A stretch of 64,000 nt of DNA from Patescibacteria group bacterium (lineage in GTDB: Bacteria; Patescibacteriota; Patescibacteriia; UBA2591; UBA4787), in assembly GCA_028715115.1 (NCBI GenBank), contig JAQUSN010000001.1, positions 385,746 through 449,745 on the forward strand, read 5' to 3'. Below the pieces are notes generated by a model. That model had not been told where the DNA came from and did not search any database. It saw nothing but the letters and a program-made list of their open reading frames with translations. How positions within the stretch are numbered: position 1 is the stretch's first letter; every line of letters begins with the position of its first letter. Positions 24,259 to 60,224 of the stretch are shown piece by piece. A program made the translations under genes and the position numbers.

Positions 24259-24268
24259 TTTTGATAAT

Positions 24269-24949
24269 ATGAATGAGCAAGAAAAGCAAAAAATCGGCAA
24301 ATTAAAAATAGCTTTTATCGGTCGCCCGGGAACAGGTAAGGGAACGCAGACCGAAATTTTACATCAAGAAACTGGTTTAGTTCTTATTCCTTCGCCAGGA
24401 GACATTTATCGCGATCCGGAATTTCGCAAAACTCCACTCGGTAAAGAAATAGGCGAAGGGGTTGATAAGGGCATTTTTGCGCCCAACGAAGTAACCAACC
24501 AAATAATGAAAGATAAAATATCCGCCTTGACCAATAATAATCAGGTGGGTTTTATTTCTGAAGGTTATCCGCGCACTTTACCGCAGGCTGAATTTGCCGA
24601 GAAAGAAATTGGCATTAATTGGATGATTAATCTTGAGGTGCCGGAGAGTCGATTAATGGAAAGGTTGTCTCGGCGCCGAGTTTGCCCAAAATGTAAAACC
24701 AACTTTAATTTTGCCACCAATCCGCCCAAAAACGGCAATTTATGCGATATTTGCCAGGTTGAATTAGTCCTAAGAGATGACGATAAGTTAGAAAATATTA
24801 AACATAGATTTGTTGTTTATCACGAGACTGCCGAACCGACCATTGAATTTTATCGCCAGAGGAATAAAATTATTGATATTAATGGCGATCGTCCAGTAGA
24901 AGATGTGGCGAAAAGCGTACTTGAATCCTTGTTGAATAAAATAAATTAA
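24269..24949 (+). CDS. adk: Adenylate kinase (canonical, zinc-LID); start corrected to MNEQEK
   Basis: GRPGTGKGTQ and CPKC..CDIC; position in the spc operon. Confidence 0.9.
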   Translation: MNEQEKQKIGKLKIAFIGRPGTGKGTQTEILHQETGLVLIPSPGDIYRDPEFRKTPLGKEIGEGVDKGIFAPNEVTNQIMKDKISALTNNNQVGFISEGYPRTLPQAEFAEKEIGINWMINLEVPESRLMERLSRRRVCPKCKTNFNFATNPPKNGNLCDICQVELVLRDDDKLENIKHRFVVYHETAEPTIEFYRQRNKIIDINGDRPVEDVAKSVLESLLNKIN

Positions 24950-27168: not shown

Positions 27169-28041
27169 ATGTCATTAGGAAGGGGGCTGGGAGCTTTGAT
27201 TCCCACTTCAACCGGACAAGTTCCGCAACAAATCGTTCAGAAAATCACCCAAGAAACATTACAACAAACCGGTGAGCAGATTTTTAATATTCCTTTAAAT
27301 CAGATTGAAGCTAATCCTAATCAGCCGCGTAAAATTTTTTCTCGTCTGGAGATGGAAGAATTAGCCAATTCCATTCGCGAATATGGCATTATTCAGCCGT
27401 TAATTTTAACAAAAACCGCTTTTGATAAATATGAGATCGTGGCCGGCGAACGCAGATGGCGGGCAGCTCAAATTTTAGAACTTAAAACCGTGCCCGCTAT
27501 TGTGCGTACTATGGGAGAAATGGAAAAGTTCGAAATTTCTCTTTTGGAGAACATTCAACGCCAGGACCTAAACCCCATGGAGCGCTCCAGGGCTTATCAG
27601 CGCCTAACTGATGAGTTTGGCTTAAATCAAGAACAAATTGCTATAAAATTAGGGAAGGCCAGGGCTACCATTGCCAACACCTTACGTCTTCTAATCTTGC
27701 CGGAATCAGTTCAGCAGGCGATAGAGCAAGGCCGGATTACCGAAGGTCATGCTAAGGTTTTGTTGTCATTGGAAGACGGGCAAAAACAGGAAATGTTTTT
27801 AAAAAGAATTTTGGGTCTAGGGTTGACGGTTCGTGAAACGGAAGATTTGTTGAAGGGCCAAAAGCCGAAAAAAATATACTCGTCAGACCCAGCCTTATTA
27901 GCCAAAGAAAAATCTTTGTCGACCGCCTTAAATTTAAAAGTGAAAATTAAAAAAAATCAAAAGGGCGGCAAGGTGATCATTAAATTCTATTCCGACGAAG
28001 ACCTGGATAATTTAATTGATAAGCTTGGTCAAAATGGTTAA
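27169..28041 (+). CDS. parB: ParB/Spo0J partition protein
   Basis: GERRWRAA ParB box and an HTH. Confidence 0.9.
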   Translation: MSLGRGLGALIPTSTGQVPQQIVQKITQETLQQTGEQIFNIPLNQIEANPNQPRKIFSRLEMEELANSIREYGIIQPLILTKTAFDKYEIVAGERRWRAAQILELKTVPAIVRTMGEMEKFEISLLENIQRQDLNPMERSRAYQRLTDEFGLNQEQIAIKLGKARATIANTLRLLILPESVQQAIEQGRITEGHAKVLLSLEDGQKQEMFLKRILGLGLTVRETEDLLKGQKPKKIYSSDPALLAKEKSLSTALNLKVKIKKNQKGGKVIIKFYSDEDLDNLIDKLGQNG

Positions 28042-28726
28042 TGATAATTTTAAAACTATTATCGTCGTTCCGGCCTATAATGAAGCGATAATTTTAGAGA
28101 AAGTATTATCGGAATTAGTTAATTATTTCAATCCGCAGCAAATTGTAGTAGTCGATGACGGCTCTTCAGATGAAACTTATTTGATTGCTCAAAAATTAGG
28201 CGCGCACGCCTTGCAGCACTCGATTAATCGCGGAGCAGGAGCGGCTACAAAAACCGGCATTGTTTACGCCTTTAATTACTTACAGGCCGATGCCATAGTT
28301 ACTTTTGATGCTGATGGTCAGCATGACCATCGCGATGTGCAAAATTTAATTCAACCGATAGCGGAGAGGAGGGCTGATGTAGTTATCGGTTCTCGTTTTT
28401 TAATAAAACAAGATATACCATTATTAAGAATCGTTGCCAACTGGTTGGCCAACCTTTTTACCTTTTTATTATTCGGCCTGTGGGTTTCTGATTCGCAGAC
28501 CGGCTTTAAGGCTATTTCTCGTTTGGCCTGGGATAAAATAGAGATACATGGCGATCGCTTTGAATTTTGCTCTGAAATAGTGGCGGAAATTAAAAAAAAT
28601 AAATTAAAATACGTAGAAATCCCTGTTAAAGTTTATTATTCCAAATATTCGCAATCAAAGGGGCAAAATTTTTTTGTCGGCTTTAAAACTTTAATTAGAA
28701 TAATCGTTAATTCTTTATCAAAGTAA
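28016..28726 (+). CDS. Family 2 glycosyltransferase (DPM/DPG-synthase-like)
   Basis: IIVVPAYNE, VVVDDGSSD and DAD motifs. Confidence 0.8.
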   Translation: MISLVKMVNDNFKTIIVVPAYNEAIILEKVLSELVNYFNPQQIVVVDDGSSDETYLIAQKLGAHALQHSINRGAGAATKTGIVYAFNYLQADAIVTFDADGQHDHRDVQNLIQPIAERRADVVIGSRFLIKQDIPLLRIVANWLANLFTFLLFGLWVSDSQTGFKAISRLAWDKIEIHGDRFEFCSEIVAEIKKNKLKYVEIPVKVYYSKYSQSKGQNFFVGFKTLIRIIVNSLSK

Positions 28727-28728: not shown

Positions 28729-29628
28729 ATGAAGGTGGTTATCACCGGCGGCGCCGGATTTGTCGGAAAAAATTTAATCAGAGTTATGCTTAACAGCGGT
28801 TTTAGTCCGTCTGATTTATTTGTTATTGATAAAAATAAAACTAATTTAAATTTTGTTAAAAATTTGGGGGTTAAAACCATTTTGGCGGACTTGGCCGATC
28901 AAGGTGAATGGAGCAAGGGTTTTCACGGTCAAGATTTGGTGATAAGCTTACACGCCCAGATTTCCGGCCCTAATTATGAGGATTTTAAAAGAAACAACAT
29001 CGATGCTACGCAAAACGTTATTGAAGCAGCCAAATCGGCCGGTATTGATAAAATTGTTCATTTTAGTTCGGCGGCTGTATTGTCAATTCGCCAAGATTTT
29101 TACGCCACTTCCAAAAAAGCCGGCGAAGAGCTGGTGAAAAACAGCGGCTTAAAATACGTAGCTATTCAGCCGTCCCTAATGTATGGACCGCTAGATAATA
29201 AAAATATTGGTTGGTTAATCAAATTTGCCCGTTCTTGTCCCGTTTTTCCTATTCCCGGTAATGGTCGCTATCCGCGCCAGCCGATTTATATCGATGACAT
29301 GGCTCATTTAGTAATTGGATTTATAAAGAATTTTCCAATCGAAAATAAAGTTTACAGTATTAATGGTCAACAAATTATTAATTTTAAAGAAATGATCGCT
29401 ACGGTTTTGAAAGAAATGGGTGGTTGGCGAGCAGCGGTTTATATACCCTTACCTATCTTTTTATTTCTGGTGAAAATTTATGATATTTTATTTAAATCTC
29501 CGTTTACGCCCGATCAAATAAAATCTTTGACCTCTGGCGATGTTTTTCCAGATTATCCTTGGTGGCAGGAATTTAACATCAAAATGACATCATTTCGAGA
29601 TGGTGTTAAAACAATGTTGAGTAAATAA
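28729..29628 (+). CDS. NAD-dependent epimerase/dehydratase (SDR family)
   Basis: N-terminal VITGGAGFVGKNL Rossmann motif; YATSK catalytic motif. Confidence 0.8.
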   Translation: MKVVITGGAGFVGKNLIRVMLNSGFSPSDLFVIDKNKTNLNFVKNLGVKTILADLADQGEWSKGFHGQDLVISLHAQISGPNYEDFKRNNIDATQNVIEAAKSAGIDKIVHFSSAAVLSIRQDFYATSKKAGEELVKNSGLKYVAIQPSLMYGPLDNKNIGWLIKFARSCPVFPIPGNGRYPRQPIYIDDMAHLVIGFIKNFPIENKVYSINGQQIINFKEMIATVLKEMGGWRAAVYIPLPIFLFLVKIYDILFKSPFTPDQIKSLTSGDVFPDYPWWQEFNIKMTSFRDGVKTMLSK

Positions 29629-29700
29629 ACAGAGGGATTGACTTTTGGCTATTTTTTGCTATAATATTAAATATAATTAAATAAATTAAATTTTATTAAT

Positions 29701-31137
29701 ATGGGACCAGAAAAATTACAAGAAATTAAAAAACCCGATCTTTCAATTAGTCGGGGATTCAGGACTGTTGACGAAGAGGTCGCTGCCCTAAATGAATTCT
29801 TCAGCGGTAAGGCGGTTGATTTTTATGCTCGTTATGGAAATGCCGGCCTTAAAGCAAAAGAAGAAGAAATGGCCGAGCGCTTGGGAACGGATAATGTTTT
29901 GTTATATAATAGCGGAATGTCGGCTATTACTTCGGTTATTGAAAATTTAAAGCTAGCCAGTGGTGACGTTATTTTATATAGCCCTTACGTTTATGGCCAA
30001 ACAAAAACCTATATCGAAAGTTTACGTGACTTGGGTATTCGTTGTATCTCTATTGATCCCGGTAATCGCGAAGAACTCGATGAGTTAATTAAAGAGCATC
30101 GTCCACGGGCGGTTTTCGCCGAAACTATGGCTAATGATCCTGAGATGCAAGCCCTCGACACTCAGGCGCTGATTGCTACGGCCGAGGAAATGAATAATAA
30201 ATTTAAGCCCCAGACATTTGACGAGGCTTTGGCTGATCGCTTAGCTAAGACGGCCTGGATAGATGGCTGGTTAGATATGGTAGCACCCGACCATGATAAA
30301 AGAGAATCACTTTTAAAGGCTTTGGTTGGGTTCTTCAAAGAAGCACAGGAAAAAATTGCACAGAATAAATCAGTAATGGGTATCAAAGGCTTAGTCGATA
30401 ATTTAAAAAAGGCCGGAATAGGCGTTGATAAATATGACTTATCTCAATTAGTAATGATTATCCAGCGCTCCTGGGATTCTTCAAGACAAAAACCGTTAAC
30501 TTTAATTCTCGATAATACCATTCCCACCGAGAGCGTTAAGGACATGGGAGCCGAGATAAAAAAGGCGCCTAAAAACGTACCAATTATCGTTGTTGACTCT
30601 GGAACGAAATTTATGGCGCAGGATCAGGCAACCTTAGGTATTGTTTATTCTAATGATTCCAAAATAATGCAAGAATTAGAAACCTGGAGAGCCGTAGACG
30701 GGGGATATATACCTCCATCTGCCGTTGAACAAATACCTAATTTAAGTAAAGAAGAGTTTGATAAACGCAATCGCCGTATTATTGCCAATGCCAAGAGGTT
30801 GGCTGAGGCGTTTGCTTCGGTGGTTGGTCATGGTGATATAGCTGTCGTTAGCCACCCGAATCTGCCCGGTCATCGCAGTTATGATTATGTTAATCAACAT
30901 ATGCCAGATGGTTCTGTGGCGGTTTTTTATATTGAATGCGCCAAACCGGCCATTGAAGTGTGCCGTAAATTAGAGAAAATGGGCATGGTTGATAAGATAG
31001 AATACGGCGGTAGCTTTGCTTTCGAGAAAACTCGCTTTGGAATTTTTAATCCCGACGGCACTAGTTTAAGAATTGCAGCTGGTGATGAATCGCCGGATAA
31101 AATAGAAGAAATTTGCAAAATCATCGAATCGTTATAA
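29701..31137 (+). CDS. PLP-dependent enzyme of the Cys/Met-metabolism (cystathionine gamma-synthase / methionine gamma-lyase) fold with a roughly 110-aa insertion
   Basis: LYNSGMSAITSV, ILDNTIPT, and DSGTKF (putative PLP-lysine). Confidence 0.65.
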   Translation: MGPEKLQEIKKPDLSISRGFRTVDEEVAALNEFFSGKAVDFYARYGNAGLKAKEEEMAERLGTDNVLLYNSGMSAITSVIENLKLASGDVILYSPYVYGQTKTYIESLRDLGIRCISIDPGNREELDELIKEHRPRAVFAETMANDPEMQALDTQALIATAEEMNNKFKPQTFDEALADRLAKTAWIDGWLDMVAPDHDKRESLLKALVGFFKEAQEKIAQNKSVMGIKGLVDNLKKAGIGVDKYDLSQLVMIIQRSWDSSRQKPLTLILDNTIPTESVKDMGAEIKKAPKNVPIIVVDSGTKFMAQDQATLGIVYSNDSKIMQELETWRAVDGGYIPPSAVEQIPNLSKEEFDKRNRRIIANAKRLAEAFASVVGHGDIAVVSHPNLPGHRSYDYVNQHMPDGSVAVFYIECAKPAIEVCRKLEKMGMVDKIEYGGSFAFEKTRFGIFNPDGTSLRIAAGDESPDKIEEICKIIESL

Positions 31138-31160
31138 TAATCATCATATGAATTTAATAT

Positions 31161-31196
31161 AAAGCAGGTGAATTTTGCACCTGCTTTATATATTTT
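31161..31196 (+). terminator. Rho-independent terminator separating the PLP-enzyme gene from the methyltransferase array
   Basis: AAAGCAGGTG-AATTTTG-CACCTGCTTT plus a T-rich tail. Confidence 0.55.
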
Positions 31197-31215: not shown

Positions 31216-32130
31216 ATGTCGAAGAAAACATTTATCACGCAAAAACAATATTGGACTAAAGTGGCAGCTGATTGGCAATTAAAGGGTGATCCATCTAGAC
31301 CGAGCCGTGATACGGTAAGGTTATATAACAAATTTATGGCAGAGGCCCTGGGAACGTCGCTAGGGAAAAAAGTGGTGGTAATGGGAGCAACGCCTGAAAT
31401 TAGGGATATGCTTTATAAATATTATTTTTTAAATAGAATTAAAGTGGTTTGTGCAGAGTGGCTCCCAGAAATGTATTATGGTATGACCGAACTTGTTAAT
31501 CATAAAATTCCCGGGGAAAAATTCGTTAAAACAAATTGGCTTAAAATGGGATTTCCCAATAAAAGTATTGATGTATTTATTGCCGATTTGATTTTTGGCA
31601 ATATTATTGACTTACCGAGTAAGGATTTATTGTTAAGTAAAATGAATCAAAAACTTAAAAAGGGCGGTTATTTCATCCTTCGCCATTGTTATGTCGTTCC
31701 AAAAAACAAAGTAGTTAATGTCAAAAAACATCTTTTTAATATATCAAAAGACGTTTTGACAGAAAAAAGAACCATAAAACAGGTGGCAACTAGCTTTTGG
31801 ACCGACCTAGTAATCGGTTCATGGTTTGAAAATAAAGAGAATAAGCTTTCTCTTTATTATTATAAAAAAGATATTCAAGATCTAAAAAAATATTTTTCTC
31901 GCAAAGGGTTATCCTATCAAGCCAGAGCGGCAAAATTAGTCTTCGATTATTTTCTGTTTTTGGCAAAAGATCATATTGCTAGAAAATTTTGGGTTCATTA
32001 TCCCAGGCCAATAGAAGAAAAATTAATTAAAAAATATTTTGTCATAAAAAAAACATCATTTCCCCAAGATTATGAGGCTAAAATAAGCGAACCGATTTAT
32101 TTATTACAAAAAAGAGAATTAAAAAAATAG
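31216..32130 (+). CDS. Tandem-array paralog P1: class-I SAM-methyltransferase-fold protein with non-canonical motif I
   Basis: W..W...RPSRDT...VVVMGATPEIRDM ... FIADLIFGN ... LKKGGYFILR ... C-terminal PIYLLQKR; start taken at MSKKTF. Confidence 0.75.
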   Translation: MSKKTFITQKQYWTKVAADWQLKGDPSRPSRDTVRLYNKFMAEALGTSLGKKVVVMGATPEIRDMLYKYYFLNRIKVVCAEWLPEMYYGMTELVNHKIPGEKFVKTNWLKMGFPNKSIDVFIADLIFGNIIDLPSKDLLLSKMNQKLKKGGYFILRHCYVVPKNKVVNVKKHLFNISKDVLTEKRTIKQVATSFWTDLVIGSWFENKENKLSLYYYKKDIQDLKKYFSRKGLSYQARAAKLVFDYFLFLAKDHIARKFWVHYPRPIEEKLIKKYFVIKKTSFPQDYEAKISEPIYLLQKRELKK

Positions 32131-32134
32131 GTAT

Positions 32135-33031
32135 ATGTCGAAAAAGCAATATAATCCTATTTGGGAAAGGCAGCGAGCCGATTGGTGGGCTTATTTTTGG
32201 GGCGGTGCGAAAGCTCCCTGGCGGCCGACCAAAAAAGAGGTTTTATTTTTTAAGAATTTTATAAAAAGATTATTAAAGGAAAGAGAGCGTCTTGAAATTT
32301 TAATTTTAGGCTCGACCCCAGAGTTTAGGGATATGCTTTTTGGGATGCGTGGGGTAAAGGTAACCCTGATTGATTTAAATTTAACTGCCAAAAAGGGTAT
32401 GGATAAATTATGCCGGGCTAGCAATAAAAGAGAGAAGTTGGTAATGGGCGATTGGCTCAAAATGAATCATTTATTTCCGTTTCATTATTTCGATGTCATC
32501 GTAAACGATGAGGGGTTTGAAAATATTGACGTTAAAAAACATACCTTATTATTTAAAAATATTCATGATATTTTAAAAAGAGATGGATATTTTCTTTCCG
32601 GCCGAGCTTGTCTAGAGCCGCTTCGTAAAACACGCATAACCTTTAAACAATTTTTTGCTAAATATAAAAAAGATCCGCATTTTTTCCATAATTTTTATAA
32701 CCGTCTGTGGTACTTATATCGACTTATTTTTTCTCCTGAAATACGAGTTTATGATTACAAAAAACAAGGCGGAAAACTGGGTCGTTTAGCCACAGAAGTG
32801 GTTAAAAAAGCCGCTCAGGAAAAAATTTATGATATTAAATATTTAAATTGGGATCATCGGATAGATTATCGCGACCCCTCTATTCGGAATTATATGGAAG
32901 TTGATATTTGCAGTTGGAAGAGATTAAAAAAAATGATTACCAAATATTTCATAATTCAAGAAACTTATCAAGATTTATTTCATCCGGTTATGAAGCAAAA
33001 GTATAATTTTATTTTGAGCCCCAAAAATTAA
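32135..33031 (+). CDS. Paralog P2 of the MTase-fold family
   Basis: APWRPTKKE...ILILGSTPEFRDM...IDLNLTA...GDWLKM...FDVIVNDEG...LKRDGYFLSG. Confidence 0.75.
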   Translation: MSKKQYNPIWERQRADWWAYFWGGAKAPWRPTKKEVLFFKNFIKRLLKERERLEILILGSTPEFRDMLFGMRGVKVTLIDLNLTAKKGMDKLCRASNKREKLVMGDWLKMNHLFPFHYFDVIVNDEGFENIDVKKHTLLFKNIHDILKRDGYFLSGRACLEPLRKTRITFKQFFAKYKKDPHFFHNFYNRLWYLYRLIFSPEIRVYDYKKQGGKLGRLATEVVKKAAQEKIYDIKYLNWDHRIDYRDPSIRNYMEVDICSWKRLKKMITKYFIIQETYQDLFHPVMKQKYNFILSPKN

Positions 33032-33036
33032 TCTTT

Positions 33037-33909
33037 ATGAAGAAAAGGATTATTAAACCAGAGCCAAAAGGATGGCAAAAAATTCAGCAAGCTTGGCAAA
33101 AAATGACCTCTCCCTCCAGGCCATCATTAGGCGATATGAAGATTTATAATGATTTCATGGCCGCGGTTCTTAATAAATGCGCCCATGGTAGGGTTTTGAT
33201 ATTAGGCGCTACTCCGGAATTGAGGAATTTGGTTATGAAACGAGCCTTATCTCGGAGAATAGACCTTTATTTATTAGATTTAAATCAGGACATGATCCGC
33301 GCGATGGACCAATTTATAGAGATAAAAAATGTAGTCCAGAAAAAAATAATAGGGGGTTGGCTAAGCATGCCGTTTAAAAATGAATATTTTGACGTGGTGT
33401 TGGGCGATGAGGTTCTAATTAACGTTGACCAAGAAGATAGAGAAAAATTATTATTAGAAATATCTCGCGTTTTAAAGAAGCGAGGAGCCTTTATTACTAG
33501 GGCTTCTCACGTAAATCCGCAAGCCCGAACATTTACGGTCCGTAAATCGTTTGACAAATATACTAATCTTTATTTACAAAACAAATTAACCTTTAATCAG
33601 GTTTTGAATTACCTATTTGAAGAAATGTTTGAGCTAAGTTATTTTAAAAATAAAAAAAAGTTTTTGTTAATTAAAACATTATTGCCAGAATGCCTGAAAG
33701 AGGCGAGATCGTCCAAACCATTGAAAAAATTTATTATTAATTCGTTCATCCGAGAATATAAGGCCTTATTTAATCAATGCTGGTCGTGGGAGTTAAAATC
33801 AGCGCAAATCAAAAGATTTAAAAAGTATTTTTTGATTAAAAAAATTAAATCGGCAAATGATTATTGGTATGCCCATATTTTGCCGATTTATTTATTAATT
33901 AAAAATTAA
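33037..33909 (+). CDS. Paralog P3
   Basis: SPSRPSLGD...VLILGATPELRNL...LDLNQDM...GGWLSMPF...FDVVLGDEV...LKKRGAFITR...PIYLLIKN. Confidence 0.75.
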   Translation: MKKRIIKPEPKGWQKIQQAWQKMTSPSRPSLGDMKIYNDFMAAVLNKCAHGRVLILGATPELRNLVMKRALSRRIDLYLLDLNQDMIRAMDQFIEIKNVVQKKIIGGWLSMPFKNEYFDVVLGDEVLINVDQEDREKLLLEISRVLKKRGAFITRASHVNPQARTFTVRKSFDKYTNLYLQNKLTFNQVLNYLFEEMFELSYFKNKKKFLLIKTLLPECLKEARSSKPLKKFIINSFIREYKALFNQCWSWELKSAQIKRFKKYFLIKKIKSANDYWYAHILPIYLLIKN

Positions 33910-33913
33910 CTTT

Positions 33914-34759
33914 ATGGAAAATAAAAGAATAGAAATGAAAAGCAGCTGGAAGACAATGGCCCATTTATGGGCTAGCTATGCGCCGCCGGCTAAACCTTCG
34001 CCAATAGAGATTAATTTTTTCGAACAATATCTTAAAAAGATGCTTAAAAAAAACAAAAGCCTTAAGGCGCTGGTCTTAGGCTCTACGCCGGAATTTCGCG
34101 ATTTGTTAGCTAAATACAAAGTAGACACGACTGTAGTCGACAATAATCCGATTTATATTAAGGCCATGGCGCAATTGACAAAACGACACAATCCCAAAGA
34201 AAGGACCATTATTTCTGATTGGTTGACGATGTCATTTAAGCCCAATACCTTTGATCTTGTTTTAAGTGATTCAGCCCAAGATAACATTAAATTCAGCGAA
34301 TTTTTTAAATTATTAAATTTATTGTATAAAATTTTAAAACCAACTGGTTGTTGGTTTTTTGGGGCGATTTGCGGTCGCAAAGACGCTCAGATAAGTTTTA
34401 CTAAATACGTCGATCTTTATCGGGAAACCCCCGGTCATTTTAGAGATTTTAGAAATAAAACTTATCGTTATTTTCAGCTTTGTTTTAATCGAGAATTTTA
34501 TAATACTAAAACTAAGAAATTCAATTTTAAGATTGTTGACACAAAGGTGACAAACTTAGTGGCCAAGAAAAAATTGTCTCCGTCAGCTTTAAAATATTTG
34601 TGTTTTAATTTGGGGGATTACCGACAGACAACGCTGACGCAAAATGTGTTTGAAAAGATATTGACTAAGAATTTTAAAATTTTAGCGACCAAGAGAGATA
34701 ATAGTCATATTGTAATGAAAAATAAATGGGCGGCAATTTTAGGGTCTAAGAAATCATAA
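33914..34759 (+). CDS. Paralog P4
   Basis: PPAKPSPIE...ALVLGSTPEFRDL...VVDNNP...SDWLTMSF...FDLVLSD...LKPTGCWFFG. Confidence 0.75.
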   Translation: MENKRIEMKSSWKTMAHLWASYAPPAKPSPIEINFFEQYLKKMLKKNKSLKALVLGSTPEFRDLLAKYKVDTTVVDNNPIYIKAMAQLTKRHNPKERTIISDWLTMSFKPNTFDLVLSDSAQDNIKFSEFFKLLNLLYKILKPTGCWFFGAICGRKDAQISFTKYVDLYRETPGHFRDFRNKTYRYFQLCFNREFYNTKTKKFNFKIVDTKVTNLVAKKKLSPSALKYLCFNLGDYRQTTLTQNVFEKILTKNFKILATKRDNSHIVMKNKWAAILGSKKS

Positions 34760-34763
34760 TTAT

Positions 34764-35588
34764 ATGGCAAAAATAAAAGAATTACCTTGGAACGAGCAAT
34801 TTGCGATTGCTTGGGCAAAAATGGCACCACCTGCTCGTCCCAGTCAAACCGAACAGAGATTTTACGAAAAGATAATCAAACAAGTCATAAAGGATAATAA
34901 AAATCCCAGAATTTTGATTTTAGGTTCAACTCCAGAATTCAGAGATATTCTACTTAGAAATAAAGTTAAACCAATCTGCTGCGATATTAATCGGGACGTT
35001 TTTAAATCGCTGACTAGAATTATGCGTCGGCGAGGCGTTGAAACCTTTATCTTGTCCGATTGGATTAAGCTTAAAACAAAAGCTAGGTTTGATTTAGTTT
35101 TGGGCCATCAGGTTATTAATATGCTTTCGCCGGTTAAGCAGGCTGTCTTTTTCAAACAGATTTATCGGCACCTTAAACCAGGCGGACTATTCATTACTTC
35201 TGTGGTAATTAGAGCGAACGACCGAGCTATTTCTCTATTAAGTGGCTTTAAGCGTTATCGTAAGTTTAAAACAATTAATATTCGTGACGCTTTTTCGACT
35301 ATTCATCCCGACCTGCTTCTGGCGATTAGCGGGCATACTGGCACTTATTCGCCCACGCAATGCTTGAAAATTGTAGATCAACTTTATCGAGGGAGCGAAA
35401 TTAGTAAAAAAGAGCGGGATATCTATTTTAAAATTATGCCGTCAAATGATTTGAAGGTTTATATACCAAATCAAAAATCTATTGAGGCATTAATAAAAAA
35501 ATATCTTAAAATTTTGCTGATTTACCACTATCCGACTAAATATTATAATTCAAAACATTGGCCGGTCTATTTATTAAGAAAAAGATAA
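34764..35588 (+). CDS. Paralog P5
   Basis: PPARPSQTE...ILILGSTPEFRDI...CDINRDV...SDWIKL...FDLVLGH...LKPGGLFITS...PVYLLRKR. Confidence 0.75.
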   Translation: MAKIKELPWNEQFAIAWAKMAPPARPSQTEQRFYEKIIKQVIKDNKNPRILILGSTPEFRDILLRNKVKPICCDINRDVFKSLTRIMRRRGVETFILSDWIKLKTKARFDLVLGHQVINMLSPVKQAVFFKQIYRHLKPGGLFITSVVIRANDRAISLLSGFKRYRKFKTINIRDAFSTIHPDLLLAISGHTGTYSPTQCLKIVDQLYRGSEISKKERDIYFKIMPSNDLKVYIPNQKSIEALIKKYLKILLIYHYPTKYYNSKHWPVYLLRKR

Positions 35589-35591
35589 TTT

Positions 35592-36434
35592 ATGAGAATT
35601 TTAACTCACTTACAAGGGTTTTTAAGGCTACAATGGGCAAAACAACGTCCGCCGCTTATTCCTTCTGTTGATGAATGTAAAATTATTAAAAATTTCATCA
35701 AAAAGGAAGTATATAATTCCAATAAAATATTAAAGATTCTTATCTTGGGTTCAACTCCGCGATTTAGAGATTTAGCCCACTCTTTTAAGAGCGAAGTAAC
35801 TTGCGCTGATATGAATATAGACATGTTGCCAGCCATGGCTGCCTTAATGACCAATCCCCGGGCGGCCGAGAAAGAGGTTTGGGTTCGTGCCAATTGGCTA
35901 CAAATGCCGCTTCGGAATAACTATTATGATATAGTCTTGGGCGATTGGGTTATTAGTAATTTACCATTAAAATTGCAATCAGTATTTTTTAAGAAAATTT
36001 CTTTGCTTATAAGGTCGGGCGGCCATTTTATCACTCGAGCATCATTATATTCGGGCGATTTAGTGCCATTCGAAAAAGCTTTGAAATTATGGTTATCTGG
36101 CAAATGGGACAATTCGCATTTAATGATGTCAGCAGCTCATCTGGACTTTAATCCACACACCTATCAGTCGCACAGTGCAAGGTTTAGAGTTAAGGGAGCT
36201 CAGGCGATTAGTAAGTTAATGTGGCAGGAAAAGAATAAACAAAATAAATCCAAATTAAAGCAAGCTATTAAAGTCCTGAAAGAATGGTTGCCAACTGGAA
36301 TGACCTGGATTTATACTCCTAAAAATGTTTTAGAATTAATAATTGAAAAATATTTTCAAATTAAAAAAATTGATTATGCCCGAGATCATTATTTAGCCCA
36401 AGCTTGCCCGATCTATTTTTTAAGAAAAAGATAA
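35592..36434 (+). CDS. Paralog P6
   Basis: PPLIPSVDE...ILILGSTPRFRDL...CADMNID...ANWLQMPL...YDIVLGDWV...IRSGGHFITR...CPIYFLRKR; roughly 60% identical to P9 over its core. Confidence 0.75.
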   Translation: MRILTHLQGFLRLQWAKQRPPLIPSVDECKIIKNFIKKEVYNSNKILKILILGSTPRFRDLAHSFKSEVTCADMNIDMLPAMAALMTNPRAAEKEVWVRANWLQMPLRNNYYDIVLGDWVISNLPLKLQSVFFKKISLLIRSGGHFITRASLYSGDLVPFEKALKLWLSGKWDNSHLMMSAAHLDFNPHTYQSHSARFRVKGAQAISKLMWQEKNKQNKSKLKQAIKVLKEWLPTGMTWIYTPKNVLELIIEKYFQIKKIDYARDHYLAQACPIYFLRKR

Positions 36435-36444
36435 TTAAAATACT

Positions 36445-37269
36445 ATGGCAAAAACCAAAAAGGTGATTAACAAAAAACCATTTCAAGCCTTTGCGGCGCG
36501 TTGGGCGAAAACTTTGCCGCCGGCTCGGCCAGCCAAGGAAGATATAATGGCTTATCGGAAATTATTTAATCAATATAAGAGTAAAACCGGCAAAACCAAA
36601 TTATTAATTTTGGGAGCCACTCCAGAATTACGAGATTTAGCGGCCAGTCTTAAATTTGACGTAACTGTTGCTGATTTTAACATTGAAATGATTAAGGCTT
36701 TAACGCCATTGCGTAAAACGAAAAGCAAAGAAAAATTTGTTATTAGTTGGTGGCAGAAGATTCCAGTTAAAGATCATTATGATATTATTACGGGCGATGT
36801 AGCGGTAAACATGCTCGATAAAAAAGATATCCCCGTGCTATTAAAAAGAATCAAGGATCTGTTGGTGCCTGGCGGATATTTTATTCATCGCGATGCAGTT
36901 TATAATCCCGAGAAGAAATTAAAGGCTAGATGGATTATCAATGCTTGGCGAAATAAAAAGATAGACATCGGAGACTTTCGTTGGTTAATTGAAATGCATT
37001 CAGAATTTAAGTCTTATGATGTTAAAACCGGCGTGGATAGCAAAACGGTGCTTTATAATAATATTCATAAGATGTGCGAACAAGGGTTATTAACCAAAAA
37101 AGAGCTAGATAAATTCGGCGTGTTTAATGATAATGTTAGAATTACGATTTTAACCAAATCAGGTTGGCATAAATTATATTCCAAATTTTTTAGGCCAATT
37201 AAATGCGCCTGCCCTGGAGGTCATATGTTTTGCGCTGATTTGCCAATTTGCGTTTATAAAAATAAATAA
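36445..37269 (+). CDS. Paralog P7
   Basis: PPARPAKED...LLILGATPELRDL...VADFNIE...SWWQKIPV...YDIITGD...LVPGGYFIHR. Confidence 0.75.
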   Translation: MAKTKKVINKKPFQAFAARWAKTLPPARPAKEDIMAYRKLFNQYKSKTGKTKLLILGATPELRDLAASLKFDVTVADFNIEMIKALTPLRKTKSKEKFVISWWQKIPVKDHYDIITGDVAVNMLDKKDIPVLLKRIKDLLVPGGYFIHRDAVYNPEKKLKARWIINAWRNKKIDIGDFRWLIEMHSEFKSYDVKTGVDSKTVLYNNIHKMCEQGLLTKKELDKFGVFNDNVRITILTKSGWHKLYSKFFRPIKCACPGGHMFCADLPICVYKNK

Positions 37270-37270
37270 T

Positions 37271-38176
37271 ATGAAAAAAAATTATATTCGTCAAAAACCA
37301 AAAAACATTAAAGTCTGGAGTAAAATAGCCTGCGGCTATTCTAAGTTAGTCGTTCCCAACCGTCCCAGCGACCATGATTGCGCTAATTATGCTCATTATA
37401 TCTATAAAATTTTGAAGGATGTAAATAATCCTAAAATTATGCTGATGGGCTCAACGCCAGAACTGCGTAGCATTTTATATACTTATACTTTTAAGAAAAA
37501 GGCACAAATTTTTACGGTTGATTTATCGGCGGATATGCATCAAGCGATGAGAGAATTCGTTGTGCCGGCCACTAAGCCCGAATTAAAAGAAGAGTTTTTT
37601 TGCGGTTCTTGGTTAAAAACAAATTTTCCTGATAACTTTTTTGATCTAGTTGTAGGCGATGAAGTGATTTGCAATGTTTGCGCCGATCAACATCAAAATT
37701 TATTTGCCGAAATCAACCGCATTTTAAAAAATGGCGGCCATTGGGTAACGCGACATAATTTTTATCTGGCAGAAAATGTCAAACAATCTCCCAAAAGCAT
37801 AATTTTAAATATCGTGGATAATATTAATGACGGAAAATACACTTTTCAATACAGTATAAACATTCTTTATTTACTTTTATTTTATCGTTTAGTTATCGAT
37901 CAAGCTCAACATTGTGTCAATGTAAGTGATGAAATTAAAGTAATCAAAAAAATATTACCAAACATTTCAAATATTAAGCAGCGTCAAACACTGAAGGAAT
38001 TATTAAGAGTATTTGAAAAATACTTCGGAAGCTATAAAAATTATTATTGGTATGTTTTGTCGAAACAGGAAAGCTTAAAAGAATTGAAGGATTATTTTCA
38101 ATTTAAAGGAGAGTTATATGCGAAAGATTATCTGACGGTTCGTCATTCACCAATTTGGTTATTAAAGAAAAAATAA
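37271..38176 (+). CDS. Paralog P8
   Basis: VPNRPSDHD...IMLMGSTPELRSI...TVDLSAD...GSWLKTNFP...FDLVVGDEV...LKNGGHWVTR...SPIWLLKKK. Confidence 0.75.
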   Translation: MKKNYIRQKPKNIKVWSKIACGYSKLVVPNRPSDHDCANYAHYIYKILKDVNNPKIMLMGSTPELRSILYTYTFKKKAQIFTVDLSADMHQAMREFVVPATKPELKEEFFCGSWLKTNFPDNFFDLVVGDEVICNVCADQHQNLFAEINRILKNGGHWVTRHNFYLAENVKQSPKSIILNIVDNINDGKYTFQYSINILYLLLFYRLVIDQAQHCVNVSDEIKVIKKILPNISNIKQRQTLKELLRVFEKYFGSYKNYYWYVLSKQESLKELKDYFQFKGELYAKDYLTVRHSPIWLLKKK

Positions 38177-38177
38177 T

Positions 38178-39026
38178 TTGTTAAATATTATTATGAAAAA
38201 AACAAATTCAATTTCTTGGCATACTAGTGTTGCTGAACGTTGGAAAATTTATGATTCACCGGCACGGCCATCGAAAGGCGAGTGTCAGATAATTCAGGAA
38301 TTTATCAATAGTCATAAAAAAAATCCAAAAATCTTAATCTTAGGTTCTACGCCTGAATTTAGAGATTTGGCGCACAATCTTCGAGCTGAAATAACTTGCG
38401 TAGATGCTAGTTTAGAAATGTTAATAGGCATGTCGGAATTAATGAAACATAAGAATCTAGTTAATCAAGAAATTTGGTTCAGATCCAATTGGTTAACCAT
38501 GCCCGTAACAGAAAATTATTACGATTTTGTCCTGGGCGATCTGGTGGTGACCAATTTACCCTTGCAGCTTCAGCCGGTTTTTTTGAAAAAGATTAAGAGT
38601 ATTTTGAAACCCGGCGGATATTTTATTACCCGCGACTGGTGGCCACCTATCGTAAAGTCGTCTCTTGAATCTGCCATTGACAGATTAAGTAAGCGAGGTA
38701 TTAACAAAAAAAGTATTAATATTTTGACCTGGGATTTATTAAATTTGTCCTACAATTATCAGAAAAAAATTGCTACGACCGACGAAATGTATCGCCTAGT
38801 TAAGGATTTAAGGCAGAAGGGAAAAGATCAAAAAAAGAAAAAATGGCTATCGACATTAATGAAACATGTCGTTTATAACTATCCATTGGGCAAAACCTGG
38901 TTTGTTAAGATGAGACCGGAAGCCGAAAAAACTTTTAGTAAATATTTTCAAATTAAATCGGTTCAGTGTACTAAAGATCATTGTCGAGCCGATCAATGCC
39001 CGATATATTTTCTTAAAAAATCATGA
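38178..39026 (+). CDS. Paralog P9
   Basis: SPARPSKGE...ILILGSTPEFRDL...CVDASLE...SNWLTMPV...YDFVLGD...LKPGGYFITR...CPIYFLKKS. Confidence 0.75.
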   Translation: MLNIIMKKTNSISWHTSVAERWKIYDSPARPSKGECQIIQEFINSHKKNPKILILGSTPEFRDLAHNLRAEITCVDASLEMLIGMSELMKHKNLVNQEIWFRSNWLTMPVTENYYDFVLGDLVVTNLPLQLQPVFLKKIKSILKPGGYFITRDWWPPIVKSSLESAIDRLSKRGINKKSINILTWDLLNLSYNYQKKIATTDEMYRLVKDLRQKGKDQKKKKWLSTLMKHVVYNYPLGKTWFVKMRPEAEKTFSKYFQIKSVQCTKDHCRADQCPIYFLKKS

Positions 39027-39535
39027 TAAATAAAGCAATATCACAGCACCAGTCTTGGGCTTATTTATCTAATACGTGGAGCAAGTATATTGCCCCGCCG
39101 GCAAAGCCTTGCCCAGGACAATTAAAAATTTTTTCTAAACTTATTACTCGCGGAAAATTTTCTTTCCCAAGAAAGGCCCTTATTCTTGGCGCTACGCCAG
39201 AGTTACGTAATTTAGTCTTAAAGCATGGATTTCAAGTAACGGTTTGTGACATAAGTATCGATATGATAAAGGCAATGACGCAATCAGTTATTAAAAATTT
39301 ACGGTACAAAGAAAAAACTATAGTAGGGGATTGGCTATCAATTAATTTACCTAGTCATAGTTTTGATTTAATTATGGGTGACGGTTCCTTAAACCAATTA
39401 CTAGAATCGACTCGGGTTAAAAAACTACTAATAAAAATTAAAAATTTATTATCTCCTCATGGAATTTTGCTTTTTCGAGAGGTGATAAGATCATCAAAAA
39501 AAACCATTAATAAGTTCAGAAAAAGACTGGATTAA
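39023..39535 (+). pseudogene. Paralog P10, N-terminal part (frameshifted/split gene)
   Basis: PPAKPCPGQ...ALILGATPELRNL...VCDISID...GDWLSINLP...FDLIMGD..., but it terminates after 170 aa. The remainder continues in another frame at 39540. Confidence 0.6.
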
Positions 39536-39539
39536 GCTA

Positions 39540-39869
39540 TTGTCTAATAATAAATTATCAAAAATAGATATAGTTAGTTTTTTAAAATATCAAAGCGATG
39601 CTAATCATTATAGTCATTCACCGTCTATAATTGACAGCCTGCCTGTTGCTGATAGAATTAAAAAATTATATCAAGCCGGTAGTTGTTCAAAATCTTTTTA
39701 TACGTGGGCTAATATCGCTTTAGGCAATAAATCAAAACCGGCATTGGTCTTTTTACAAAAAGACCTGGAAGGATTATTAAGAAAATATTTTAAATTAGCT
39801 AGAATTACCCAATGTCATGATTATCACCATTGTAGATATATGCCCTTATATCTCGCTAGGCCAAAATAA
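39540..39869 (+). pseudogene. Paralog P10, C-terminal part
   Basis: Ends in the family C-terminal motif (CRYMPLYLARPK); frame +1 relative to 39023..39535. Confidence 0.55.
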
Positions 39870-39874
39870 ATTTT

Positions 39875-40729
39875 ATGAAAAAACACACTAAAAATATACA
39901 GGCCTGGAAATCTGTCTCCGATGTTTGGGGGTCGCTTAGACCGCCCCTGAGACCGTCGGTAGGGGAGATAAGAATCTATGAAAAATTCTTAAAAAGAATT
40001 TTACCCAAAATTTCATCTCGTCGTGCTTTATTGTTCGGCGCCACGCCGGAATTACGTGATTTATTGGCAAAATATAATTTTCAAGTTACGCTGATTGATA
40101 TTAATCCGGCCATGGTAAATGCAACGACAAAATTGCTTAAACGCAAAAATCACCAAGAAAAAATAATCATTGGTGACTGGCTAAAAACTCCATTAGCACT
40201 ATACAAGTATGATGTAATAATGGGTGATCATATCATGGGCAATGTTAAGTTTAGAAGGTGGGATCAGTTTCTCCGTCGAATTATTGGTTTATTGTCATCT
40301 AATGGTTATTATATCACTAATGTTCAGTTAAAATTTCCGGTGAAGAAAATTATTTCATTCGAAAAATTAATTGATTCATATTTAAAATATCCTAAAAAAT
40401 TCGATAACATAGAATATCAATGGCAAATGTTGTATCAGATGATGTATGGCGATAAAAGATTTTGCGGCTATCCTGATTATTTGATTCTTTGGCCGGCTAT
40501 ACCGCAGATACAAAAGTTTTTAGAAAAGAGTAAAATATTTATGGACAACCACGGGATTGCCAAGTTGGCCAGCAATATCTATGTAAAAGAATTTAAATAT
40601 TCGTCGCCGCCGCGTCAGGTTTTTGAAAAAATATTTAAAAAAAGATTTAAAATTATAGACTCTGATATCAGTAGGAAACATCTTGTTTATCAAAGTTATC
40701 GCATTTATTTGGCAAAGCCATTGAGATAG
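39875..40729 (+). CDS. Paralog P11, the last member of the array
   Basis: PPLRPSVGE...ALLFGATPELRDL...LIDINPA...GDWLKTPL...YDVIMGD...SYRIYLAKPLR. Confidence 0.75.
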   Translation: MKKHTKNIQAWKSVSDVWGSLRPPLRPSVGEIRIYEKFLKRILPKISSRRALLFGATPELRDLLAKYNFQVTLIDINPAMVNATTKLLKRKNHQEKIIIGDWLKTPLALYKYDVIMGDHIMGNVKFRRWDQFLRRIIGLLSSNGYYITNVQLKFPVKKIISFEKLIDSYLKYPKKFDNIEYQWQMLYQMMYGDKRFCGYPDYLILWPAIPQIQKFLEKSKIFMDNHGIAKLASNIYVKEFKYSSPPRQVFEKIFKKRFKIIDSDISRKHLVYQSYRIYLAKPLR

Positions 40730-40756
40730 AGGGGCATCATAGTTATCCACAGATAA

Positions 40757-40783
40757 TTAGCACTCGGACTTGACGAGTGCTAA
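40757..40783 (+). promoter_or_regulatory. CIRCE operator (HrcA binding site), perfect match TTAGCACTC-N9-GAGTGCTAA
   Basis: TTAGCACTCGGACTTGACGAGTGCTAA sits directly upstream of hrcA-grpE-dnaK, overlapping a TTGACG/TATACT promoter-like pair. Confidence 0.85.
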
Positions 40784-40806
40784 TTATTTATTTATACTAT
40801 CTATAT

Positions 40807-41508
40807 ATGATTACTGAACGGCAGGAAAATCTTCTCAAAATAATTTTAAAACATTATATCAAGACCGCTCAGCCGGTTGGTTCTGAGGTTTTAGCCAATA
40901 ATACTGATTTTAAAATTAGTCCGGCTACCATTCGCAACGAGATGGCTAATTTAACCAAAAATGGTTATCTGGAGCAGCCTCATACTTCAGCCGGCAGAAT
41001 TCCCACCGAAAAAGCCTATCATCATTATTTAAATAAATTTTTAAAAGCGGCCGAACCGGTAGTTAACGAAAAAAATAATTTTAAAAAAATTAAATCAGAT
41101 CATCAGGCCCCGGATTTATTGATTAAAAAGATGGCCCAGCAATTGGCTAAATCTTCGGGGGAGTTGGTGGTCGTGGCCACCGATAAGGATAATTTTTATT
41201 ATACAGGACTCTCATTTTTATTTAGCCAGCCCGAGTTTAGTCAAACTGAAAATATTTTTAATATTTCCGAAATGATTGATCATTTAGACTCAATTATGTC
41301 AGAGGTTTTTGATACGGTTTCCGACGATCCGCAAATATTATTGGGTCAAAAAAATCCGTTTAGCCGCCACTGCAGCACAATTTTAACCCGGCTAGAGATT
41401 CCTGAGCAAAAAGAAGACGTTATCTTTGGCTTGCTCGGTCCGGTGCGCATGGATTATGACCAGAATTTAGGCCTGATTAATTACGTTAAAAAGATATTAA
41501 ATAACTAA
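40807..41508 (+). CDS. hrcA: Heat-inducible transcriptional repressor HrcA (short form)
   Basis: N-terminal wHTH ITERQENLLKIIL..YIKTAQPVGSEVL...ATIRNEMANLTKNGYLEQPHTSAGRIPT. Confidence 0.85.
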   Translation: MITERQENLLKIILKHYIKTAQPVGSEVLANNTDFKISPATIRNEMANLTKNGYLEQPHTSAGRIPTEKAYHHYLNKFLKAAEPVVNEKNNFKKIKSDHQAPDLLIKKMAQQLAKSSGELVVVATDKDNFYYTGLSFLFSQPEFSQTENIFNISEMIDHLDSIMSEVFDTVSDDPQILLGQKNPFSRHCSTILTRLEIPEQKEDVIFGLLGPVRMDYDQNLGLINYVKKILNN

Positions 41509-41517
41509 AAATTTATT

Positions 41518-41988
41518 ATGGCCGAAAAAGACAGCAAGAATATAGACGAATTACAAGTTCAAATCGAGGAACTACAGAAAAAAGCCGATGAATATCTTAA
41601 TGGCTGGAAGCACGTCAAAGCTGATTATATTAATCGTGAAAAAGAAATAGAGCGCGAGAAAATTGAATGGGTAAAATTCGCCAACCTAGAAATGATTTTG
41701 CATCTTTTAACCATCCTTGACGCCCTGGATAATTCTATTAAGCATTTACCCAAAGAATTAGCCAATAATGAATGGGCTAAGGGAGTGACGCAGATAAAAC
41801 AGCAGATAGAAGATGTTTTAAAAATACACGGCGTAGAAAGAATAAAAACTTTAGGTGAAAAATTTGATCCGGAATTTCATGAAGCCATTGATAAAAAGGG
41901 CGATGACGGAAAAATAGCCGAGGAAATTCAATCTGGATATTTAATGCACGGTCGGACTATTAGACCGGCCAAAGTAATTATTAAGTAG
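41518..41988 (+). CDS. grpE: Nucleotide exchange factor GrpE
   Basis: Operon position; coiled-coil N-terminus and GrpE C-terminal fold. Confidence 0.9.
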   Translation: MAEKDSKNIDELQVQIEELQKKADEYLNGWKHVKADYINREKEIEREKIEWVKFANLEMILHLLTILDALDNSIKHLPKELANNEWAKGVTQIKQQIEDVLKIHGVERIKTLGEKFDPEFHEAIDKKGDDGKIAEEIQSGYLMHGRTIRPAKVIIK

Positions 41989-42024
41989 ATAAAAAATAAA
42001 ATTTAATTTATTAAGACAAAAATT

Positions 42025-60101: not shown

Positions 60102-60224
60102 TAATTATTTTAATTTTGTTTTCGGCCTTTCTACACACAACATGGTCCTAAGGCCGAAGGAAGTCAAACGTATACTTCTATTTTACCGCTTTATCGGTTT
60201 TTTAATAAGAGGTAGGGTTGAAAT

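Follow-up and report, generated by a model that had tools for sequence, protein, structure and literature searches.

The 64,000-nucleotide stretch analysed here (the window), from a contig of a Patescibacteria group bacterium, carries between about 29.6 and 40.7 kb a block that is best explained as one functional module, made of a gene for a pyridoxal 5'-phosphate (PLP) enzyme and of eleven paralogs with a class I methyltransferase fold. The reading that we prefer, with a probability of about one half, is that the paralogs are S-adenosylmethionine (SAM)-dependent alkyl transferases, probably methyltransferases, with distinct acceptors and with the PLP enzyme as a shared partner. The fold and the superfamily are already known. 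As far as databases and literature show, what is undescribed so far is the subfamily marked by a G[SA]TPE.RD loop, its restriction mainly to bacteria of the Candidate Phyla Radiation (CPR) and to DPANN (Diapherotrites, Parvarchaeota, Aenigmarchaeota, Nanoarchaeota, Nanohaloarchaeota) archaea, its arrays of up to about 16 ancient paralogs, its fusions and its insertion-bearing PLP partner.

The array consists of eleven open reading frames (ORFs) on the forward strand, arranged head to tail from 31216 to 40729, ten of them intact and one split; all eleven match the family profile, at 145-335 bits. The initial annotation, made from the letters alone, had correctly described a tandem same-strand array of paralogs, but its count of 11-12 copies with eleven intact was too high. 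The members are the following, where percentages are amino acid identities and L numbers designate related loci.

31216..32130, + strand: P1, 304 aa, intact; motif I GATPEIR; closest outside relative 53% identical (L007:3019-3936).
32135..33031, + strand: P2, 298 aa, intact; motif I GSTPEFR; relatives at 51-54% in L033 and L011.
33037..33909, + strand: P3, 290 aa, intact; motif I GATPELR; Methyltransf_11 39.7 bits; relative at 59% in L006.
33914..34759, + strand: P4, 281 aa, intact; motif I GSTPEFR; relative at 49% in L011.
34764..35588, + strand: P5, 274 aa, intact; motif I GSTPEFR; relatives at 42-43% in L042 and L047.
35592..36434, + strand: P6, 280 aa, intact; motif I GSTPRFR (E to R); closest in-window copy P9, 42%.
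36445..37269, + strand: P7, 274 aa, intact; motif I GATPELR.
37271..38176, + strand: P8, 301 aa, intact; motif I GSTPELR; Methyltransf_11 45.4 bits; relatives at 47-49% in L011, L033 and L003.
38178..39026, + strand: P9, 282 aa from TTG 38178, more likely 277 aa from ATG 38193.
39023..39869, + strand: P10, split into ORFs 39023-39535 and 39540-39869; repaired protein of 281 aa with intact motif set.
39875..40729, + strand: P11, 284 aa, intact; motif I GATPELR; last member, 47 nt before the listed hrcA ORF (GTG 40777).

The intergenic gaps from P1 to P11 are 4, 5, 4, 4, 3, 10, 1, 1, -4 and 5 nt; if P9 is taken to begin at ATG 38193, the start of the database protein P0001, 16 nt separate it from P8. 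GTG 31168 is part of a hairpin, and the start of P1 was therefore placed at ATG 31216. The starts of the array genes are not preceded by evident Shine-Dalgarno motifs. Database copies of the window proteins come from metagenome-assembled genomes (MAGs) of the Patescibacteria group.

The AlphaFold2 model of P9 (predicted local distance difference test, pLDDT, 87; predicted template modelling score, pTM, 0.87) shows the seven-stranded alpha/beta sheet of class I methyltransferases, with strands 1-7 in canonical order, an antiparallel beta-7 and, between beta-5 and beta-6, a segment called here the lid. Eight of the ten intact copies pass the gathering cutoff of Methyltransf_11 (PF08241), scoring 22.8-45.4 bits against 21.2, and P1 and P7 fall just under it (20.5 and 19.8 bits). 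A profile search of the PDB placed the uncharacterised archaeal proteins 1ve3 and 3dtn on top, followed by phosphoethanolamine N-methyltransferases (PMTs). The Rossmann-type, class I methyltransferase fold proposed at the outset is thus borne out by model, profile scores and matches to PDB sequences. The Pfam hits are only to generic methyltransferase domains, in matches that begin at profile positions 11-29, past motif I, and no window copy exceeds any NCBIfam cutoff, the best match being that of P9 to CpaM (NF043040; 30.4 bits against 180). Indeed, the family is without a dedicated Pfam or NCBIfam model, and no description of it, or of a module of PLP enzyme plus array, was found in the literature; the first reading had likewise recognised no described family.

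The family is set apart by the loop that follows beta-1. The GxGxG motif I is absent from all eleven copies, which lack the Gly-rich E/D-x-G-x-G-x-G of the class; in its place stands L-[IV]-L-G-[SA]-T-P-E-x-R-D, and the acid two positions before the motif-I Gly is lost, being replaced by a hydrophobic residue (LILG for LDLG). This non-canonical motif I, already noticed in the window, proved to define the family in 244 relatives aligned to the family profile, to which all the conservation percentages refer: G57, T59 and R63 are conserved at 100%, P60 at 99%, E61 and D64 at 89%. The acid at the end of beta-2, the ribose ligand, is D77 in 98% and E in the remainder; W104 and E97, around beta-3, reach 100% and 98%, D115 on beta-4 93%, and L142 and G146 on beta-5, the strand with PGG, 92% and 97%. 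Other highly conserved positions are L54 and L56 after beta-1, G119 and D120 on beta-4, and W20, P26, R28, P29 and S30 in the N-terminal segment. Conservation in the family alignment is thus highest where this fold lines its cofactor. The acid of beta-2, the Trp of beta-3, the Asp and GD of beta-4 and the PGG of beta-5 are retained in every paralog, and all ten intact copies carry every family-invariant residue. The motifs listed in the initial annotation were found in the copies as W..W....P.RPS, L(I/V)LG[SA]TPE.RD, an acidic beta-2 end, DW(L), FD.V.GD, LKPGG.F and a C-terminal PIYLL+K. In class I enzymes the Gly-rich loop normally contacts the methionine part of SAM. Selection clearly maintains a cofactor pocket, in which charged residues now make up the part where the methionine end of SAM usually sits.

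The nearest proteins of known structure differ from the window family in these same features. PH0226 (1ve3), MM_2633 (3dtn) and PH1305 (1wzn), Methyltransf_11/25 proteins which are themselves uncharacterised, lack the G[SA]TPE.RD loop and the loss of the acid before the Gly, as well as the extra N-terminal helices with the invariant W and P.RPS and the conserved E97 and W104. The best-scoring characterised enzymes are the PMTs (PfPMT 3uj6, AtPMT 5wp4, HcPMT 4krh; E 2e-6 to 9e-6). The likeness is one of overall similarity only, at about 14-16% identity, and some alignments span the helical region after beta-5 (4mwz, query 68-247). PMTs act on a small anionic phospho-amine, a kind of acceptor that would suit basic enzymes lying beside kinases in related loci; unlike the window family, they have a canonical Gly loop, form no arrays and have no PLP partner.

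Among 1.84 billion cluster representatives, the family profile matched 1431 proteins at E<=1e-10, of which 569 reached E<=1e-30; they come from Patescibacteria and DPANN archaea, with generic names where names are given. A locus survey, in which one genome per GTDB species was scanned, gave 75 other loci (76 with the window). The bacterial ones are from Moranbacteria, Falkowbacteria, Buchananbacteria, Kaiserbacteria and Dojkabacteria, the archaeal ones from Woesearchaeota, Nanoarchaeia, Iainarchaeum, Aenigmarchaeota and Micrarchaeota, and a small number of loci with a single copy bear the label Clostridia or Acidimicrobiales. The title 'uncultured Gammaproteobacteria', carried by contigs from third-party annotation (TPA) assemblies that resemble CPR in gene content and best matches (L001, L003, L004, L007, L008, L011, L023 and others), is probably a taxonomic mislabel.

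The family is centred on CPR bacteria and DPANN archaea, and large tandem arrays recur elsewhere. The largest has about 15-16 copies on one contig (L033 plus L001), others have 10, 8, 7, 7, 6, 6 and 6, and DPANN loci have 4-5 copies on mixed strands. Natural fusions also occur, namely two-domain proteins and one six-domain protein of 1704 aa, read through in the standard code (L078:1125-6239, protein P0121); some loops of the latter are degenerate (LGFNSEIRD, LGVDPVLRD), and its gene adjoins a beta-CASP RNase and AMP-salvage genes (IF-2B-type isomerase, RuBisCO, AMP phosphorylase). Tandem arraying is a property of the family. In the window the array is surrounded by housekeeping genes of a low-GC chromosome, with a ribosomal protein operon, secY, adk, map, tRNAs, parAB, hrcA-grpE-dnaK, hisS, dnaG and rpoD. 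A phage or mobile origin was rejected, since 2.9 million viral contigs contained no relative of the family and the flanks are core genes.

Identity between in-window copies ranges from 22 to 42%, with a median of 30%, and P6 and P9 are 42% identical; in the first estimate, a range from about 25% to about 60%, the upper value, given for this pair, was too high. Each window copy is closer to a relative in another genome (41-59%, and 80% for P9) than to its best match in the window (28-40%); therefore, the duplications predate these lineages. This bears out the view of an old, internally diverged expansion, and recent duplication or recombination-driven variation is ruled out by the same low identities and closer orthologs elsewhere.

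Divergence is concentrated in the lid, a helical segment of about 95 residues, particular to each paralog, that shows 14% identity among in-window paralogs against 34% for the core. Across genomes the lid is near core identity in six of the eleven ortholog pairs (lid and core, respectively, 49 and 54% for P1, 52 and 58% for P2, 54 and 61% for P3, 79 and 80% for P9), and it lags behind the core in others, for example in P11 (21% vs 53%). The lid looks like a subfamily-specific module that many subfamilies conserve, as would be expected of an acceptor-recognition, or specificity, domain.

One relative carries an array at the same chromosomal site, before hrcA-grpE-dnaK. Its ortholog of P9, the most conserved and most 'central' paralog, is 80% identical to the window protein, against 57-60% for HrcA, GrpE and the M16 peptidase, which suggests purifying selection on P9. 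The remaining members share no more than 31-41% with any copy in the window, this syntenic array has no P10 or P11, and a strain variant of the same relative has one truncated member. The family thus pairs a strongly constrained core member with a changing repertoire. Given the variable copy number and content, the suggestion of a diversified set of modification enzymes, made in the initial annotation, fits better than a fixed pathway.

A second component of the module lies upstream of P1, together with two sequence elements.

29638..29665, + strand: promoter-like site before the PLP gene, TTGACT, 16 nt, TG-TATAAT; 11 of 12 consensus matches, extended -10 TG.
29701..31137, + strand: PLP enzyme gene, gamma-family (Cys/Met-metabolism), 478 aa, isoelectric point (pI) 5.2.
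31157..31196, + strand: hairpin between the PLP gene and P1, 14-bp stem with core AAAGCAGGTG / CACCTGCTTT, then ATTTT.

All ORFs within 6 kb of family members were clustered across loci, and the PLP enzyme emerged as the one conserved partner of the family in bacteria and archaea. It is found in 25 loci, archaeal ones included, as a single-copy partner, on the same strand as the nearest family member in 21 of them and at a distance of at most 160 nt in 20, usually directly upstream. It accompanies 18 of the 27 arrays of at least three copies, against 5 of the 43 single-copy loci, and contig or fetch ends truncate several of the exceptions. No fixed paralog stands beside it, as the adjacent subfamily varies between loci. 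The 18 homologues nearest to it (E<=1e-10) are encoded on contigs that also carry the methyltransferase family, and those with a named source are Patescibacteria MAG proteins.

The enzyme has the traits of the gamma family: fold type I, the YxR phosphate clamp, DNT, S-G-T-K (S-x-T-K in the family) with the PLP lysine and the C-terminal, carboxylate-binding Arg. A helical bundle of about 95 residues is inserted in its PLP domain (residues ~168-262). Against the named equivalogs, which are cystathionine gamma-synthase (CGS), cystathionine gamma-lyase (CGL), cystathionine beta-lyase (CBL), methionine gamma-lyase (MGL) and O-acetyl- or O-succinylhomoserine (OAH/OSH) sulfhydrylase, its best score is 73 bits, far below the NCBIfam cutoffs of 440-765; the low score and the inserted bundle distinguish it from cystathionine gamma-synthase, gamma-lyase and O-acylhomoserine sulfhydrylase.

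The promoter-like site is a candidate start of a transcription unit comprising the PLP gene and the array. The hairpin folds at -25.4 kcal/mol (z = -4.5; none of 200 shuffles folds as well) and looks like a terminator or an attenuator. A terminator before the array had been proposed in the initial annotation, and the hairpin does exist; the picture of a PLP gene cut off from the array is misleading, the gene being the conserved partner. That the two stay adjacent across loci speaks for functional coupling, with no more than attenuation at the hairpin. A riboswitch or leader RNA was considered and rejected: Rfam at gathering threshold gave only tRNAs in the window and in ten related loci, and the PLP-P1 spacer is a plain hairpin.

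The module differs in charge between its repeated and its shared parts. The eleven window copies have pI 9.4-10.2 (family median 9.8, with a net charge of +23), and basicity is highest in the lid; for soluble enzymes encoded in the window the pI is 5.2-9.5. The same pattern is found in a second set of genes from related loci: 21 loci contain one to five paralogs of about 500 aa, made of an N-domain without assignment and of the His swivel domain of phosphoenolpyruvate (PEP) utilisers, and 9 loci contain a PPDK_N ATP-grasp domain, stand-alone or within a full-length PEP synthase. The swivel paralogs have a net charge of +22, and the shared single-copy parts are acidic (pI ~5.5 for the PLP partner, 5.1 for PPDK_N). 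Relative to swivel kinases of the rifampicin phosphotransferase/PEP synthase type, related loci have a split version, on separate genes and uncharacterised, which mirrors the logic of PLP enzyme and array, with one shared acidic part and many specificity parts.

In the mechanism that we propose, all paralogs would share one cofactor, SAM, bound in the remodelled pocket, and each would alkylate, most probably methylate, its own and probably anionic acceptor, picked by its lid. The single-copy acidic PLP enzyme would serve a half-reaction common to all paralogs, on the sulfur-amino-acid side, that is on homocysteine, methionine or the aminobutyryl part of SAM; perhaps it docks physically to the basic paralogs. 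Methyl is put forward as the transferred group by prior. An arrangement of this kind has a known counterpart in Mycobacterium tuberculosis, where the mycolic-acid methyltransferase genes mmaA1-mmaA4, of the mycolic acid cyclopropane synthase (CMAS) family, form a same-strand tandem cluster of class I paralogs that differ in the position or reaction for which they are specific within one substrate class; they are only four, more alike one another than the window copies, and have a canonical motif I and a known substrate. The window proteins do not belong to that family, as CMAS (PF02353) gives 16.8 bits for P2 and 12.9 for P5 (E 0.004-0.07) against a cutoff of 27.

Several observations weigh against this reading. 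The Gly-rich loop has been exchanged for charged residues, so that SAM may sit there in a different pose, or the ligand may be a different one. The six-domain fusion lacks a neighbouring PLP gene, thus the partnership is not obligatory, and in this genome the hairpin before P1 could uncouple the expression of the PLP gene and the array. The argument from charge is not universal, since DPANN copies are far less basic (median pI 8.8). Finally, a phosphorylase of 5'-methylthioadenosine (MTA), which is not a product of methyl transfer, is found in or beside arrays at three loci, accompanied in two of them by adenine phosphoribosyltransferase (APRT), and no hydrolase or nucleosidase for S-adenosylhomocysteine (SAH) was seen among the recurrent neighbours within flanks of about 10 kb; three unnamed neighbour clusters examined for SAM-cycle genes proved to be a family 4 glycosyltransferase (GT4), an acetyltransferase-like protein and an ABC ATPase.

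The MTA phosphorylase (MTAP) gene is interposed among the array members of L006 and L061 and immediately follows the array of L016, with scores of 294-306 bits against an equivalog cutoff of 274.85 (TIGR01694). APRT flanks the array in L006 and L016, and the gene arrangements differ among the three loci.

L006:3862-6135: MTAP/APRT region.
L016:10823-12145: MTAP/APRT region.
L061:12654-13463: MTAP region.

MTA, and not SAH, is the by-product when SAM gives its aminobutyryl or aminopropyl group or is cut by a lyase, and these genes are a hint that MTA is a by-product of the module. They bring in the main, if doubtful, alternative, in which paralogs or PLP partner would draw on the 3-amino-3-carboxypropyl (aminobutyryl) part of SAM, with release of MTA. 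The paralogs would then be either carboxy-aminopropyl transferases or SAM lyases, or else specificity subunits that present SAM and acceptor to one PLP enzyme of gamma-replacement type. The T-P-E-x-R-D loop and the lost motif-I acid would reposition the amino-acid end of SAM; the conserved partner belongs to a PLP family whose natural substrates are gamma-substituted 2-aminobutyrates; and the charges of the many basic variable parts and the one acidic shared part are complementary, as in the split kinases. A precedent is offered by AzeJ, a class I fold enzyme with an altered loop, GxxxG, which cyclises SAM and releases MTA (PMC11794875). However, of the signature motifs of such azetidine-2-carboxylate (AZE) synthases (AzeJ/VioH), namely an N-terminal FY, PFNxxGN and RxxYYxxC (PMC11794875), the last two were searched for by regular expression and are absent from all eleven copies. 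The match to the carboxy-aminopropyl transferase MccD (5fcd) is no better than those to ordinary methyltransferases, and neither AzeJ/VioH nor MccD families form arrays. All sequence and fold neighbours are methyltransferases, as are most proteins of this fold. Moreover, MTAP and APRT accompany only 3 of the 76 loci, possibly from a single clade (66-68% identical), and they are also ordinary nucleoside-salvage genes in CPR bacteria. This alternative is held back because MTAP/APRT occur in three loci only and because Pfam and NCBIfam give no hit to any known carboxy-aminopropyl transferase family.

A more specific form of it, which we consider rather unlikely, is a combinatorial SAM-processing system specific to ultrasmall CPR and DPANN episymbionts, in which an acidic PLP enzyme would work with many basic specificity subunits of methyltransferase fold, each presenting SAM and an acceptor of its own, the aminobutyryl group being transferred besides or instead of methyl and MTA being released. 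The one ATP-grasp protein with its many swivel-kinase paralogs in related loci would be a parallel case. If true, this would be an unrecognised route by which genome-reduced symbionts derivatise a panel of host-derived metabolites.

The strongly basic character of the family, and of the lid above all, could also be explained if the paralogs were site-specific methyltransferases of one polyanionic macromolecule, most plausibly rRNA or tRNA, with one lid per site. Close packing and the natural two- and six-domain fusions would agree with joint action on one substrate, and the six-domain fusion lies beside an RNase. This explanation seems improbable: Pfam reveals no recognisable RNA-binding domain, the DPANN members are not very basic, and matches to tRNA enzymes score no better than those to small-molecule enzymes. 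Besides, copy numbers from 1 to about 16 and an array content that differs in close relatives are unexpected for ribosome or tRNA maturation, and both the PLP partner and the kinase paralogs would be left unexplained.

Returning to the preferred reading of transferases with distinct acceptors, it differs from the initial annotation in the role given to the genes further upstream.

28016..28726, + strand: family 2 glycosyltransferase (GT2), PpgS-like with 157 bits, under the PpgS cutoff.
28729..29628, + strand: short-chain dehydrogenase/reductase (SDR) epimerase, directly upstream and on the same strand as the array.

These two genes and the insertion-bearing PLP enzyme are present as first described, and their position had suggested a stepwise methylation of a glycan or lipid made by GT2 and SDR. 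WecG, GT4, Wzy_C and LytR genes near some related loci could be taken in the same sense. Yet across the 75 other loci GT2 recurs in none and SDR in one, and the flanks there are unrelated housekeeping genes such as dnaN, gltX, fpg, holA and tyrS; furthermore, the variable copy number and content of the arrays do not fit a fixed pathway. The glycan pathway was rejected, as neither gene is conserved near the family, and it is now very unlikely.

P10 deserves separate consideration. It is disrupted by a +1 frameshift at an A5 run (39521-39525), 20 nt downstream of an A9 run, and deletion of one A from the A5 run restores a full-length protein of 281 aa with every family motif. The frameshift had been reported from the start, and the same sequence, base for base, is found in an independent Logan assembly of another sequencing run (L077); therefore the lesion is genuine, or else the site is decoded differently. 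A fixed pseudogene is one possibility, a slippery or phase-variable site another. A real frameshift in the array, the truncated member in the strain variant of a relative and the degenerate loops of the six-domain fusion might indicate that the paralogs are in decay or are not catalysts at all, but pseudoenzymes or scaffolds. The low G+C content could be added (0.33-0.35 for the array, at 32000-42000, below its flanks, with about 0.42 at parAB, 26-28 kb, and 0.43 at dnaK; the ribosomal-protein operon further upstream has 0.38-0.42). Against this stand the ten copies out of eleven that are intact with all invariant residues, the P9 ortholog more conserved than the neighbouring HrcA and GrpE, the lid nearly as conserved as the core in about half of the ortholog pairs, and the retention of the family across two domains of life in streamlined genomes; a general loss of function is accordingly hard to credit.

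Known families and systems were also compared. The DNA/RNA amino-methyltransferase motif IV, (D/N/S)-P-P-(Y/F/W), is absent from all eleven copies, which read G-D-x-V-x-x-N at that position. TehB, of the TehB/TPMT metalloid and thiol methyltransferases (Pfam cutoff 20.4 bits), is matched only by P7, at 21.0 bits over generic core residues 67-147, and the other nine intact copies give no hit; MetW and NNMT are not among the Pfam hits at E<=1. Assignment as AZE synthase, DNA/RNA amino-methyltransferase, CMAS or CpaM was rejected on defining motifs or scores. A known defence system was rejected as well: the MADS protein mad2 (PADLOC) is matched only at about positions 309-417 of its 492-position profile, the methyltransferase core (E 1e-9 to 4e-4), and partner genes are absent.

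Among free-standing genomes, those of CPR bacteria and DPANN archaea include some of the smallest known, and their lineage-specific genes are for the most part without assigned function. Here about 11 kb, or about 2% of a 479-kb contig (479,433 bp), are spent on one PLP enzyme and eleven paralogs; the module is probably not dispensable, since relatives have retained it, with as many as about 16 copies. Either chemistry would be informative: SAH as product would lead to what the symbionts modify, MTA to a new non-methyl chemistry of SAM. The family merits its own Pfam or NCBIfam model, replacing the generic label 'class I SAM-dependent methyltransferase'.

Some further genes recur around arrays of related loci. 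The split swivel-kinase system is found at L047:8911-19000, L056:3589-20000, L042, L005, L008, L052 and L020, where one acidic PPDK_N protein of about 317 aa and two to five of the basic ~500-aa paralogs adjoin the PLP/methyltransferase module, interleaved with a haloacid dehalogenase (HAD) phosphatase and several ORFs without Pfam match; the window itself has no swivel-kinase genes. The largest array is followed downstream by a PEP synthase of 1235 aa (L001:15478-19182) with an apparent intein-like insertion, by sequence reading. A basic conserved ORF of about 105 aa without Pfam or NCBIfam match is found in or beside arrays (L002:1117-1449, and in L001, L003, L005, L007, L008 and L011), and NIF3-like and PflX-like radical SAM genes recur near arrays in five loci each.

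Within the window, a perfect CIRCE (controlling inverted repeat of chaperone expression) element, TTAGCACTC-N9-GAGTGCTAA, lies at 40751-40789, directly 3' of P11 and overlapping GTG 40777. This palindrome is the HrcA operator of the hrcA-grpE-dnaK operon and not a terminator of the array, and the real hrcA start is probably an ATG downstream of the listed GTG. An island with a G+C content of 44-50%, against about 37% for the genome, extends from 57584 to 61000; it contains a large serine recombinase (57617-59236, - strand; Resolvase, Recombinase and Zn ribbon domains) that abuts tRNA-Asn (57584-57658), and two ORFs without Pfam match, and looks like an integrated mobile element. Finally, besides the canonical adk (24221-24949), an ORF of 372 aa at 4498-5616 gives a weak and interrupted adenylate-kinase match.

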